Source: Octopus vulgaris (lineage: Eukaryota). Taken from it: a stretch of 64,000 nt of DNA. The stretch spans positions 11,842,001-11,906,000 of the forward strand of contig OX597830.1 in NCBI GenBank assembly GCA_951406725.2, read 5' to 3'. Below, one piece after another: positions 2,977-7,901 of this stretch. Within the stretch, counting starts at the first letter, position 1. Each line of letters starts with the position of its first letter. Under the pieces are notes generated by a model. The model saw only the letters and a program-made list of their open reading frames with translations. It searched no databases and was not told where the DNA came from. A program made the translations under genes and the position numbers.

Positions 2977-3108
2977 CATATATATATTCAAACATATAAG
3001 GGATGGCCATAATAGGACATCCGACTCACTAGAAAGAGCAGTTAAATTCCAAACCACTAATAGTTGTAATTCTGAAATGGAAAGAGAAATAAAAACGTTT
3101 ACCCTCTC

Positions 3109-3192
3109 CTTTCTGGACTATGCATAGTTTCGGCAATCTTTTGTAAATAAAATAAATTTATTTACAACTGGCGTTGCCTCTTCAGCAGAAAG
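3109..3192 (-). ncRNA. Type I hammerhead ribozyme (intact consensus core)
   Basis: Minus strand: ctttctg-CTGAAGA-ggcaa..ttgcc-GAAAC-tatgcata-GTC-cagaaag; 7-bp stem I, G-C-closed extended stem II, palindromic stem III ACTATGCATAGT. Confidence 0.92.
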
Positions 3193-3747
3193 CCAAGGAC
3201 TACCATATAGTCACGAGGCGATAATAACCATGCCTCGAGTCTATATGCTATAACTTTTCAAAATCCACCACACTCGCGCGGTTTTCTCAGCAGTAAATAT
3301 AAACTGCCGATTTAATTTCAAAATTAGCCAAAAAATCATTAATTAATAAATTTTAGGGTAGTAAAAAATTCTAGAAAAATTCTTCGCTGCCAGCGGTCAA
3401 GTGAGAAAGAAAAAATAGCCAATAGACTATGTAATATACATTCAAACATATAAGTCTGCTTAGAAACAATCGTCGAGAAACAGAAAGAGCGATAGAACAT
3501 GTAGAATGGCAGTGTGACTCCTGCGAGAGATAATGAAATTACTCGAGAGGGAAATGTCCCTGGATCGAGTCTTAAAGATTTCAAACATAAAATAAAAACT
3601 TAGATGCACTTGAAAACTACCTCCTTTGTTTAATAAAGATTATAGAATGTAGGAAGAGAAAGAACGGTTTTCTACACATACTAAAGTCGGACAAAATGAA
3701 AAAAAAAACTCTTCAATAATCTATTCATATTTTCTAACAAAACAAAT

Positions 3748-4020
3748 GGCTGGTTGTAGGGGATTCCCTACCCAGTCAATATGGATGATGCTTGCAGCCC
3801 TTAGAATAAAAAGAAAAGGACAAAGGGTGGCTGTGCGCAGGATGGGAAAGGTAGCAGGAAGAACCTCTTCTTGGTTATGTAGCTAGAGAAATGAGTTAAG
3901 CTGGAAGCCGGGTAGGTGTGGCGTGATGAGCAGTGATTTGGCCACAAATGGGAGGATGTTGTGGTTCAGGGTCGAAACACCCGATGATCTTTGACTGCCG
4001 TTTGATGGCATCAATTTCTC
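3748..4020 (+). mobile_element. HERO-type (R2-superfamily, REL endonuclease) LINE 3' fragment
   Basis: Reads GCRGFPTQSIWMMLAALRIKRKGQRVAVRRMGKVAGRTSSWL (VGCRGF..SxWLW terminus), followed by a 3' UTR with GAAACACCCGATGA. Confidence 0.75.
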
Positions 4021-4175
4021 CTGGTCAAAGCTACGTTCTTTTAGATGTTATTTACAAAATAAGTATGCGTAATTGACAGTGACATCGAAGCTAGACATTA
4101 CACACTTACTGAGCCCGCTATTCGGCTTTTGTACTTTCTTTTTTTATGAATATAACATACTTTTAATTATTCATA

Positions 4176-4244
<69 letters not shown>

Positions 4245-4294
4245 TATCAAATGAAATAAAGAAAATGAAATAAAAAACAGAACACAAATGATGT

Positions 4295-4388
4295 CGCGGT
4301 ACACGTGTTTCAAGCTTTATAAAACAACTTATTCTTACATCAATGTATAATCGACATAACAGATGGTTTAAAGCTCTCTTCAGCTGCA
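4295..4388 (-). ncRNA. Type I hammerhead ribozyme (one stem I mismatch)
   Basis: Minus: tgcag-CTGAAGA-gagcttta..taaagctt-GAAAC-acgt-GTA-ccgcg; palindromic stem III ACACGTGT; lies in a module bounded by (TA)n on both sides. Confidence 0.82.
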
Positions 4389-4467
4389 TGCAATTGCTAT
4401 ACCAAAGACCTGTATCACATTATGAAAAGTCCGAAAAGGAACATTTGCTATTATCTATAATGGTAGG

Positions 4468-4578
4468 TATATTGAGTTTCACTGAGAAAGTATGTTTGCA
4501 AATCTTCGTAATCAAATAGGTGTGCAGGGTATTATTGGACTTCGAAAATCCGTCCATACTGTATCATCAGTCAATATA
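4468..4578 (-). ncRNA. Degenerate hammerhead (stem III and cleavage triplet missing)
   Basis: Minus: tatattga-CTGATGA-...-GAAAC-tcaatata; the 8-bp stem I is intact but nothing lies between GAAAC and stem I'. Confidence 0.4.
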
Positions 4579-4602
4579 TATATATATGTATGTATGTGTA
4601 TG

Positions 4603-4639
<37 letters not shown>

Positions 4640-4814
4640 ATGTATATTTATTTACTTTATATTAAAATTTTTTATGTATTGATTAAGTCTTTCCTTGTTT
4701 GATTTGCAAAATAGTGGTTTTGTCTCGAATTAATATTATATAATATTTTACTATAAAATTGGATTTAATCCTAAATCTGATTTTTTTCCCTGTAAATTTG
4801 GATTTATTCCCTAA

Positions 4815-4870
<56 letters not shown>

Positions 4871-4954
4871 TGTACATACATACACGCACACATAGAAATA
4901 GATGTATGAATATACATAATATAATTCAAAATATATAAATATAAATATACATAC

Positions 4955-4988
<34 letters not shown>

Positions 4989-5709
4989 AACGAATATATG
5001 CACCAAATAAACAAGAGGAAAAATATTAGTTTGATATTGCCTTTATTTTATCGTTACAGTGTAGGATAAAACTTCTTCGAGTTGCTGTGATACAAAAAAT
5101 ATTTGCATTTCTGTTAGCCATGCTGTAGGTAGAAGTTCATATGTGAGTAACTGCTAGGAGACGAATGTAAGAAGGAGAGAGAACGAGTAAAAGAATTTAC
5201 CTTTCTGAGTTGATAAGAAAAGAAGGTGAAAGCTGAATAGACCCGTGGTGATAAGTCATTCCTCACGGGAAATTTTGGACAGCCGCCAGGCGAAAAAAAG
5301 GTCGAATTAAATCCGGGTACTGTATTTATATTTTTCATAACTAAATTAGGTCAGGTCGAACAAAGTACTTTTCCTCTGTTGTCTTGTACGAACTTTTGGC
5401 ACCCGCAAATGGTTTGTTAAAGAGTAGAACTTATCTCTATGGGAAAGTTGACTCTCATAAATGTTTTAGTGCAAATACCGAGAACAACAGTAAGGAATTC
5501 GTAGAAAAATCTAGACTGGGTTTCGAATCTTGGCCAAGAATTTAGGAAGCAAATCGCTACACACACACACACACACACACGTGCTATATATATACACTTA
5601 CACATACGCATAGATTTATACACAATTTGGTTTTCTGGCAGTATACATAAGTATTAAACAGTTTTTTTTTTGCAGTTAGCAAATATTTTGCTAATGTAGT
5701 TTTAACATT

Positions 5710-5885
5710 GGGGAAGGCGATGACAAACCACCCCAATATCTCTAACGAAAAAAACACTCTGAGAAAGTCAGAACGAAATAATTCTATGGCTTCATACGAT
5801 GGGAGAATTGGCGCCTAGCCGGGACGACTTTCGTTGGAGTGTCATCAACGCGCTGTAAAATCGTATGATACGTGATGATGATGAC
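5710..5885 (+). mobile_element. RTE-like LINE/SINE 3' tail remnant
   Basis: GGAAGGCGATGACAAACCACCCC resembles the RTE/BovB-type 3' motif; ends in (GAT)n. Confidence 0.35.
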
Positions 5886-6149
5886 AATGAGTGTTAACCT
5901 ACTGAATATATTAAACCAAAAAAAAAGAAAAAAGAAAAAAGAAGTATTTTTGCAATCAGCGCTAAAAGGATTAACGCTATGCTAGATCTTACAGCGTAAG
6001 AGTGCGCGTATAAATATATAATCTATAATATATATTATACAATATACTATAACATAATATAACATAATATAATACAATATATGATTATATATGCATATAC
6101 ATACATACATACATACATACATGCATACATACATACATACATACATACA

Positions 6150-6237
<88 letters not shown>

Positions 6238-6492
6238 GTTAGCTCTGATCGAAGTCTTTTCTACTTGCTGAAGCCTTACCACATTATATAATGTTACCTG
6301 ATCGAGCTCTTTTCTACTTGCTGAAGCAGTATATATACACAGTATATATACTGAATCTTCTACATTCAACCATTTTTGACGTCACTGCTTATAACGGAAT
6401 ATTTTAAAGAAACACTCATTATCGCTATGGGCTCCGTGTGGGCAGTCATCCAAAAGTTTTTGTGCATCTTGATGTTGACATAAGTTCCTTGC

Positions 6493-6575
6493 TTTTCCTG
6501 ATGAGAAGGCGGCATAATGCACCCCTTATTCCTTCGAAATTAGGAATATGCAGCCTTCGAAACATATGTCGAAAA
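6493..6575 (+). ncRNA. Type I hammerhead ribozyme (intact consensus core)
   Basis: ttttc-CTGATGA-gaaggcggcata..tatgcagccttc-GAAAC-atat-GTC-gaaaa; palindromic stem III ACATATGT; module 6236-6775 is bounded by (TA)n arrays. Confidence 0.92.
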
Positions 6576-6772
6576 TAAAGGGATTTTGTTAATTCGTCAT
6601 TCAACTCCATTCTTTCATTTATTTGTATTTAAAAAAACACACAAATTTCCACACGAAAGCACGTGATCTCTGCTCTAGGCATGTAGCTTCAACCGTGTTC
6701 TTCTGACGTGAATTTGCTACCCAGGTATCGGTTAACCGAATTATCCATAATAAGATAATTCATTCAACTACT

Positions 6773-6809
<37 letters not shown>

Positions 6810-6812
<3 letters not shown>

Positions 6813-7497
6813 ATACGAATGTATTACTTTCCAGTAAAAGATAGCCCATAAGGGTAAAATTATACATATAAAAGTAAATAAATGGTACAACAAGGCACCA
6901 ATATTTACTGGAGAATAGCAATCGTAATAAATATGACGCTATTGTATAGATTCACTGCGTATATACTAGCAAAGACGTGTGTGTGCAACAAGCATGAAAA
7001 AAATTTGTCTTACCTCTAGGAAGAACATCTGATAAATGGAGAACCTAGAATCGGATAATGCAGTACCGGTTTCAGACTCTTCAAATACGTTTGACAACGT
7101 AGATTTGATTAGTATTCATCAGCTGCATTTACCTAGACAAGATTTCAAATGTTGCCACATCTATGCCAGTACACTCGTCTGAACGCCAAAACGTTAACAG
7201 AACGAGAACAGTGAAAAAGTTTCAATGAAAATAATAATGCAATACGATTGTATTACTTTCCAGTAAAAGATAGCCCGTAAGGGTAAAATTATACATATAA
7301 AAATAAATAAATGGTACAGCAAGGCACCGATATTTACGATTGCTATTTTCCAGTAAATATCGGTGCCTTGTTGTACCATTTATTTACTTTTACATGTATA
7401 ATTTTACCCTTATGGGCTATCTTTTACTGGAAAGTAATACATTCGTATTGCATTATTATTATCATTGAAACTTCTTCATTGTTCTCATTCTTTGATA
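6810..7497. repeat. Direct-plus-inverted repeat module (Penelope pLTR-like) with a ~140-bp-arm hairpin
   Basis: 7195-7337 and 7352-7497 are inverted copies around a ~15-nt loop; 6810-6926 is a third copy, direct to the left arm and including the loop in inverted orientation. Confidence 0.9.
7057..7129 (-). ncRNA. Type I hammerhead ribozyme
   Basis: Minus: aatgcag-CTGATGA-atact..agtct-GAAAC-cg-GTA-ctgcatt; 7-bp stem I, palindromic stem III ACCGGT, one stem II mismatch. Confidence 0.85.
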
Positions 7498-7575
7498 GAA
7501 AATTCAACAAAAAAAGCACTCCATCTGGTGAAAGATAAATATTATTTATTTAAAGGACACAATACATGTATTCAA

Positions 7576-7630
7576 GTGCTACTAATAGTTTCATATGTTG
7601 AGAAATATCTCGAACATATTCATCAGGCAC
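7576..7630 (-). ncRNA. Type I hammerhead ribozyme (intact consensus core)
   Basis: Minus: gtgc-CTGATGA-atatgtt..aacatat-GAAAC-tatta-GTA-gcac. Confidence 0.9.
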
Positions 7631-7901
7631 AAACCACATATTATAACGAATTAAAAAAAATTGAATAATAGAAGAAACGGGAAAAAAACTGAGAAGGTAG
7701 CATATAGAAAACGCAGAAGGTTACAAAAGCGGAAAACGAAAAACAGAAAACAAAAATACAAAAAGTAAAATGTAAAAGGTAAACAGTAAAACAGATAAAA
7801 TACTTATCCTCCTTAGATTTTAAATTATAAGGCTGGAAATATATCAACAAGTTAATCAGGACTATGAGAAATTTTTCAATTCTTCAAAATATATTTATAC
7901 A

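Follow-up and report, generated by a model that had tools for sequence, protein, structure and literature searches.

The Hydra clade of Penelope-like elements (PLEs) with a C-terminal endonuclease (EN+) was defined in Craig et al. 2021 (PMC8557442, section 11), whose supplement includes the entry Hydra-1_Obim from Octopus bimaculoides, with a length of 2507 bp and (TA)n (PMC8557442), and the hammerhead ribozymes of metazoan PLE pLTRs were described in Cervera and De la Pena 2014 (PMC4209133). Both the hammerheads in PLE ends and the TA-targeting Hydra elements are already published. Non-LTR retrozymes provide a further term of comparison (Cervera and De la Pena 2020, PMC7229834; Li et al. 2026, bioRxiv 10.64898/2026.07.22.740005), and the 2026 survey covers vertebrates, three insects, and one coral (bioRxiv 10.64898/2026.07.22.740005). 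In the 64-kb stretch of Octopus vulgaris DNA that was analyzed as a whole (the window), five hammerhead motifs, named A to E, are found within 4.5 kb. In all likelihood, they are the end pieces of five unrelated PLE families, likely inserted successively at neighboring (TA)n tracts, and the crowding would arise because each of these families left a short end piece beside TA repeats.

Judged by their sequence, the five are genuine type I hammerhead motifs. A search of the window with a type I descriptor (CUGANGA, stem II of at least 4 bp, GAAA, stem III, NUH, stem I of at least 4 bp, at most one mismatch) recovers all of them at the places first assigned by a sequence-only reading, together with just one further match at 31316-31403(-). 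Specifically, A, C, and E pass the descriptor with zero mismatches (3/5), while B and D each need one mismatch to meet the type I order of core and stems, at positions (stem I in B, stem II in D) that are paired in most other copies. The cut sites predicted from the sequence for A and C coincide with those proposed earlier, and the palindromic, dimer-type stem III that had been noticed in most motifs is present in four of the five, the exception being E (ACTATTAGT). As in the pLTRs of metazoan PLEs, the motifs are of type I, with a long stem II, a short stem I, and a palindromic stem III suited to dimers, and they occur mostly in single, dispersed, truncated copies, with inverted pairs 100-700 bp apart; unlike the minimal motifs, they have a longer stem III (6-12 nt), and A could work as a monomer. 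In folding predictions, the active fold lies above the minimum energy by 0.0 (A), 7.8 (B), 2.6 (C), 7.1 (D), and 4.0 (E) kcal/mol, and A is the sole motif predicted to fold into the active form as a monomer. Hetero-dimers among the four minus-strand motifs were rejected, with stem I cross-pairing of at most 1 bp, except for the 5' strand of B with the 3' strand of D (6 bp), a pairing that would leave a 2-bp stem III and is taken as chance. Covariation across 20 copies of family E does not exceed that of shuffles, 42 of 500 of which score as high. Separately, one stem I pair of this family is altered on both sides in 3/20 copies.

Table 1. Positions of the modules, hammerhead motifs, and neighboring features in the window.
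Feature	Position	Strand	Description
(TA)n tract	2889..2987		3' end of module A; TRF
Module A	2985..3454	-	A single head-to-tail unit of ~455 bp, ORF-less and retrozyme-like, with a further 15 nt of terminal redundancy
Hammerhead A	3109..3192	-	GUC; predicted cut 3116/3115; stem III ACTATGCATAGT; predicted active fold is the minimum-energy fold
(TA)n tract	4173..4242		3' end of module B; TRF
Module B	4263..4578	-	3' pLTR piece of a putatively Hydra-like PLE encoding RT/GIY-YIG
Hammerhead B	4296..4387	-	GUA; stem III ACACGTGT; predicted cut 4300/4299; stem I of the window copy has an A.C mismatch
Long hairpin	4468..4578	-	Hammerhead-like words, no NUH; 5' ends of B copies pile up at the hairpin foot
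Module C	6353..6774	+	5'-truncated 3' UTR/pLTR of a GIY-YIG PLE without the CxCX5C linker
Hammerhead C	6493..6575	+	GUC; predicted cut after 6570; stem III ACATATGT
(TA)17 tract	6775..6809		C and D meet tail to tail here and share the tract at their 3' ends; TRF, sequence
Module D	6811..7491	-	ORF-less unit of ~429 bp at 6811-7240; upstream of it, a partial tandem copy at 7241-7337; inverted 5' piece at 7334-7491
Hammerhead D	7057..7129	-	GUA (most copies GUC); stem III ACCGGT; predicted cut 7064/7063; stem II of the window copy has a U.C mismatch
Module E	7493..7901	-	Older PLE, 3' UTR/pLTR; the inverted 5' piece of D takes the place of the last ~15 nt and the TA tract
Hammerhead E	7576..7630	-	GUA; predicted cut 7580/7579; stem III ACTATTAGT, non-palindromic
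Abundant repeat, presumably SINE-like	7902..8416	+	Interrupts E; matches many loci
Element E, decayed end with GIY-YIG endonuclease	8408..8792	-	tblastn E 5e-16 to 2e-18; HMM iE 4e-13

A supposed sixth hammerhead, read as a copy with stem III deleted, did not survive closer inspection. In the long hairpin of module B (z -4.4), the CUGAUGA and GAAAC boxes are both buried, GAAAC passes directly into the stem I strand, and the cleavage triplet (NUH) is absent; moreover, the sister-subfamily copies L191 and L195 keep the hairpin and lack both boxes. In its present form, the element is ruled out as a hammerhead.

Each motif belongs to a separate dispersed repeat family with multiple copies on many contigs (40 candidates scored of 1,429-3,670 per family), always near the 3' end of its family, and the five modules have no sequence in common (best pairwise blastn E 0.026). 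A (TA)n tract borders the 3' end in 18/19 copies of A, 12/14 of B, 18/20 of C, 18/20 of D, and 13/20 of E, against 8-19% of random positions. All five families display PLE-like anatomy, consisting of a hammerhead near the 3' end, an optional tail, and an inverted or tandem 5'-truncated partner. The earlier proposal of five independent, mutually unrelated Penelope-linked families inserted at (TA)n is thus borne out, and the BLAST check contradicts a single-copy origin. Its further qualification as non-autonomous holds for A and D and fails for three of the five families, because B, C, and E are the 3' ends of elements that encode RT and GIY-YIG, joined to this ORF in other copies and, in the case of E, followed by the endonuclease remnant listed in Table 1.

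In those other copies of B, C, and E, a single ORF with RT and, at its C-terminus, a GIY-YIG domain lies upstream of the pLTR, and a remnant of it is found directly upstream at 11/20 loci of C and 15/20 of E, with none counted within 1.5 kb of A, B, or D. For B, the link to the ORF rests on L189/L210/L035 and L022: the tail continues into an RT+EN ORF at G000:C27:12745732-12748824, and an independent copy of B has, in its upstream flank, a match to the UTR that follows the ORF. Pfam alone is weak for the endonuclease, as it assigns GIY-YIG to the related L209 protein with an E of 0.01. B, C, and E share with the Hydra clade the order of RT and GIY-YIG, the CxxC..E and CxH motifs, the canonical hammerhead near the 3' end, the insertion at (TA)n, the tails, and the inverted 5' copies, and B and E also share the CxCX5C linker. 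In E, whose median identity to the 19 best copies is 81%, the Hydra-type CxCX5C linker and the CxxC/CxH around the conserved E and N are present in copies L085, L088, L099, and L146-L148. B, in which the CxCX5C linker, CxxC, and CxH are present in L210, may be classed as Hydra-like by its motifs, although it differs from the clade in carrying RWA and DKI in place of RWK and DKT (L189) and in an ORF span of about 3 kb plus a long UTR, which together exceed the length of Hydra elements, generally under 3 kb. C, which lacks the CxCX5C linker in 7/7 copies with a true IYQCKI match and also in the 55%-identical relative L124, and yet ends in (TA)n, would be Hydra-like only. A Neptune or Nematis PLE was rejected for B, E, and L209, which have CxCX5C instead of the CX2-5CxxC linker; neither the CX2-5CxxC linker nor DKG is carried by any of 120 homologues of the L209 protein, and a PDB sequence search with this protein gave 0 matches.

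Families A and D consist of units of ~455 and ~429 bp, respectively, closed by a head-to-tail junction at 15/19 loci of A and 14/20 of D. The longest stop-free frame is 46 aa in A and 44-49 aa in A and D together; the GC content of the 2-kb bins that hold them is 0.31-0.36, the structure of the unit is strong (z -4.1 in A, -5.5 in D), and a 26-mer of A and a 27-mer of D have 128 and 169 exact matches in the genome. As short, low-GC, non-coding, head-to-tail, highly structured units with one type I hammerhead, A and D resemble non-LTR retrozymes and may be regarded as retrozyme-like. They differ from them in that most copies comprise 1-1.5 units, bear PLE-type tails and inverted ends, and do not form long arrays; two same-strand hammerheads stand in tandem at only 3/40 (A) and 1/40 (D) scored places, and the copies in the window are monomers. 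No sense ORF remnant was found upstream of A or D in 19 loci each, no autonomous partner for either was found among 210 loci, and A and D share no sequence with B, C, and E. The units contain no Pol III A/B boxes, and the 5' ends of partial copies do not cluster clearly at the cut site, with 11/14 in A starting downstream of the cut (by eye) and those of D being spread. In the comparison of A and D, a single AT-rich stretch of 31 nt also matched the L209 family (E 0.001).

The descent of the motifs from PLE families has to be weighed against other readings of the same cluster. That they are chance motifs of AT-rich DNA would agree with Rfam, which the sequence-only reading had put forward as a check and which yields 0 matches at the gathering score and one weak HH9 match at 7044-7136 (E 0.12), limited to motif D; the Rfam models probably miss variants with a long stem II. 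Dinucleotide shuffles of 2985-7860 do not reproduce the motif density, as the strict descriptor gives 0 matches in 500 and an earlier relaxed one, which recovers 4/5 motifs, gives 1 in 500. Moreover, in fetched DNA, which is enriched for these families, both stems are fully paired in 17/92 core pairs found by sequence only, against 0/10 in reversed DNA, and together with the constant location near the family 3' ends these results leave chance with almost no credit. A self-cleavage cassette retained by the host in a minus-strand intron or long RNA would fit the orientation of four of the five motifs and the predicted minimum-energy active fold of A. However, four of five on one strand has a two-sided binomial chance of 0.375, stems in the B and D copies of the window are broken by changes absent from most other copies, and retrozymes are under-represented in introns in Xenopus (bioRxiv 10.64898/2026.07.22.740005). 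The intronic location that had been envisaged found no support either: the 111 non-repeat reading frames of the window and 20 kb upstream returned only RVT_1, Transposase_1, and sub-threshold matches to a search for a host gene, and a simple exon finder returned no exon. A host cassette is, therefore, very improbable.

The cluster could also mark a PLE insertion hotspot, at which insertions extend or duplicate (TA)n, or at which the endonuclease has a preference for pLTR DNA already in place, with new elements landing on old ones. The shared (TA)17 at the ends of C and D, the 5' piece of D on the 3' end of E, a further (sixth) PLE remnant at 9.9-11.2 kb of the window, seven long TA tracts in 5.4 kb (mean 3.8), and the nicking of AT-rich DNA in its own pLTR by a purified PLE protein (PMC11167929) speak for this possibility. 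Against it, random regions hold 0-29 TA tracts per 10 kb, which means that the region is not extreme, and hammerheads of other families are not enriched around 88 non-duplicate copies, up to a distance of 1.5 kb (7 motifs in 256 kb versus 9 in 400 kb of random genome samples from 40 regions, p 0.44); the repeated insertion suggested earlier is, accordingly, not upheld as a hotspot, which appears improbable. Extrapolated, the random samples give ~63,000 motifs genome-wide, and one narrow core pattern has 472 exact genomic matches versus 11 in the control. With 0.26 clusters of five motifs in 4.5 kb expected per genome (0.005-5.9), this background load and the unenriched flanks indicate that the pile-up is likely the upper tail of the genome-wide motif load. 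A local bias is possible, since the point estimate is below 1 and the additional remnant lies nearby.

With the motifs taken as end pieces of PLE families, they likely served the RNA of the elements themselves. On the basis of published PLE work, the GIY-YIG endonuclease would nick (TA)n, reverse transcription would begin inside the element RNA at the "tail", and its early stop would leave the hammerhead-bearing end behind. The RNAs of A and D may borrow the RT and endonuclease of such elements, and their hammerheads would release unit-length RNAs from multimeric transcripts, D as dimers and A possibly as a monomer. E would have been inserted first, given its 81% identity, later split by the repeat that we take to be SINE-like, and capped by D. 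With 94-97% identity, A, D, B, and C would be younger than E. The window copies are likely inert passengers in place, because each is single, the stems of B and D contain mismatches, and A is the sole motif with a predicted active fold on its own.

A broader reading, which we hold as tentative and rather doubtful, is that Hydra-like Penelope elements have radiated extensively in this genome along with retrozymes that parasitize them; on this view, A and D would be circle-forming RNAs mobilized in trans by TA-targeting Hydra enzymes, and C would have lost the CxCX5C zinc-finger linker and would still insert into (TA)n. If true, the reading of C would contradict the proposal that the CxCX5C linker does the targeting. 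The young, intact tandem family L209 is a candidate enzyme for testing both the trans mobilization and the linker-targeting idea.

The cluster is ordinary retroelement debris and is not to be read as a host ribozyme cassette. For this genome, an estimated 29,000-120,000 hammerhead motifs are missed by Rfam. Two retrozyme-like families with PLE insertion marks come from an invertebrate group that the 2026 survey does not cover, and lineage C, linker-less yet apparently TA-targeting, makes the published linker-targeting idea directly testable.

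Copies of all five modules were found on many contigs when each was searched against the assembly (2.8 Gb, 227 contigs), with 40 candidates scored and the 20 best-scoring loci fetched per module. Median identity between the window copy and the other 19 is 93.5, 96.5, 96.2, 93.6 and 80.7% for A to E, values biased upward because the fetched loci are the best-scoring ones. The modules show no relationship to one another, in line with the claim that stems and flanks are unrelated, and the proposed (TA)n association is borne out: with segmental duplicates set aside, a 3' end or tail lies next to (TA)n at 18 of 19 loci in family A, 12 of 14 in B, 18 of 20 in both C and D, and 13 of 20 in E, against 8-19% of random positions. 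One contig bears at least six near-identical segmental copies (L025-L031, G000:C28) that have a single B insertion in common. Family copies often show tails and inverted 5'-truncated partners, and this anatomy, together with the (TA)n ends, is that of endonuclease-positive Penelope-like elements (PLEs) as the available text of PMC8557442 and PMC11167929 describes it, which upholds the suggested Penelope link.

Positions of the features in the window (module span, strand and hammerhead)
Feature	Span	Strand	Hammerhead
Module A	2985-3454	-	3109-3192
Module B	4263-4578	-	4296-4387
Hairpin within module B	4468-4578	-
Small TA-flanked repeat	4647-4818
Two ~55-bp tandem copies	6236-6352	+
Module C	6353-6774	+	6493-6575
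Module D	6811-7491	-	7057-7129
Module E	7493-7901	-	7576-7630
Endonuclease remnant of E	8408-8792	-
Decayed PLE ORF	9900-11176	+
5'-truncated 3' end, L209 relative	16357-16484
Stretch nearly without repeat matches	18000-28000
Further hammerhead, another family		-	31316-31403
Its inverted partial partner	31850-31920
Mariner/DDE transposase or LINE-type RT remnant (Pfam)	33516-34536	-
Same	57429-57644	-
Same	59969-60526	+
Same	61572-62003	-

All five type I hammerheads of the sequence-only reading were recovered in place by a type I descriptor, which gave one extra match in the rest of this AT-rich, microsatellite-laden window. Three of the five pass at zero mismatches; the other two each carry one, A.C in stem I of hammerhead B and U.C in stem II of hammerhead D. 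A palindromic stem III is present in 4/5, agreeing with what was said of most of them, and shuffles of 2985-7860 gave 0/500 (strict) and 1/500 (relaxed), which speaks against a chance motif density. The Rfam search of the window returned no match at the gathering score, and below it D alone matched (weakly, E-value 0.12). The altered stem I strand of the B copy pairs over 6 bp with the 3' strand of D (4384-4389 and 7058-7063, minus strand), probably by chance CpG decay. The supposed sixth, stem III-deleted hammerhead lacks NUH, and a single long hairpin buries both boxes; it was rejected. Sister copies L191 and L195 retain the hairpin without the boxes. Among 28 tail-selected B loci, nine of the ten that reach this hairpin end at its 5' foot, which suggests that the template RNA of family B begins there. 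Nine of the 28 (within L180-L208) begin at or just past the hammerhead cut (reference positions 455-500).

The families had been taken as non-autonomous, which holds for the non-coding units A and D and not for B, C and E, which are ends of coding PLEs. A sense-strand PLE ORF remnant lies immediately upstream in 11/20 C and 15/20 E loci, in a search whose queries were partly proteins read from these two families themselves; the window's own E endonuclease remnant is severed from E by a SINE-like repeat. No ORF occurs within 1.5 kb of the B module copies; the B tail continues into an RT-to-GIY-YIG ORF (C27:12745732-12748824), where a B module of the same strand lies 4 kb beyond the ORF, and the UTR after that ORF has an 81% match in the upstream flank of an independent B copy (L022). 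The motifs CxCX5C, CxxC..E and CxH occur in both B and E, and B has RWA and DKI instead of the RWK and DKT of the related young family L209; these motifs favour the Hydra clade over Neptune. The supplement of PMC8557442 holds an entry, Hydra-1_Obim of Octopus bimaculoides, with (TA)n preference. In family C (L045-L058) an Asn/Ser-rich stretch replaces the CxCX5C linker in 7/7 truly matching copies, as it does in L124, a 55%-identical relative that ends in (TA)n, and because the linker is missing C would be classed as Hydra-like only. Family L209 (G000:C1:57211100-57214300, among many places) is very young and Hydra-type, with tandem 2.58-kb units, open frames up to ~717 aa and a hammerhead-like motif reading CCGAAGA where CUGANGA is expected; its relative in the window is flanked by TA tracts.

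Head-to-tail closure is seen in 15/19 A loci (period ~455 bp) and 14/20 D loci (~429 bp), the longest stop-free frames are 44-49 aa, and no sense-strand PLE ORF was found upstream. Both units are much more structured than shuffles (z -4.1 and -5.5), have 128 (A) and 169 (D) exact core matches genome-wide, and show tandem same-strand hammerhead pairs at 3/40 and 1/40 scored places. They fit non-LTR retrozymes (PMC7229834), and circular RNA would be predicted for them; the search for a driving (autonomous) element of A or D among 210 loci identified none.

PLE hammerheads with palindromic stem III are described as cleaving inefficiently when single and more efficiently as dimers (PMC4209133, available part), and a purified PLE protein as nicking AT-rich DNA and beginning reverse transcription within its RNA at the tail, hammerhead cleavage not being required (PMC11167929, available part). 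Each module is probably the product of one such event of nicking and of reverse transcription begun at the tail. The active fold is the predicted minimum-energy fold in place for A alone, lying 2.6-7.8 kcal/mol above the minimum for B, C, D and E, and each window copy is without a like partner.

Nine motifs turned up in seven of forty sampled 10-kb regions, whose coordinates were fixed round numbers (2.25 per 100 kb), extrapolating to ~63,000 genome-wide (29,000-120,000); a single narrow core pattern has 472 exact genomic matches versus 11 for the control. A uniform model predicts 0.26 clusters of five motifs within 4.5 kb per genome (0.005-5.9), a value that would rise with the unevenness of TA density (long tracts number 0-29 per 10 kb). 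Such a cluster is rare, and this one came to notice through a scan. Repeated insertion into (TA)n tracts as a local preference is not shown: the flanks of 88 family copies hold seven other-family motifs in 256 kb, without enrichment (p 0.44). C and D have one TA tract in common, D sits on the end of E, and nearby lies the decayed PLE ORF (linker region HMM iE 1e-9, YRDD-like RT word by eye), which a TA tract and a small repeat interrupt; a local PLE insertion hotspot is neither shown nor excluded. The small TA-flanked repeat recurs next to copies of C and D and in 3/40 random regions, and the tandem copies directly upstream of C are unmatched in the fetched loci. Across the window plus the 20 kb upstream of it, neither 111 scanned frames nor an exon finder gave host exons, a result that short exons could escape; the ~10-kb stretch nearly without matches to fetched repeats could contain a promoter or an untranslated exon.

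A search within one literature collection found no publication on hammerhead clusters of this sort or on cephalopod retrozymes; the available parts of a squid genome paper count 235 Rfam hammerheads (PMC6962438), and those of an octopus repeat annotation list 31 recently active Penelope-like families with ribozymes unmentioned (PMC13282606). The initial observation stands and its interpretation stands in part: the five families are members of already known kinds, and A and D are consistent with the PLE origin proposed for non-LTR retrozymes in the available text of bioRxiv 10.64898/2026.07.22.740005.
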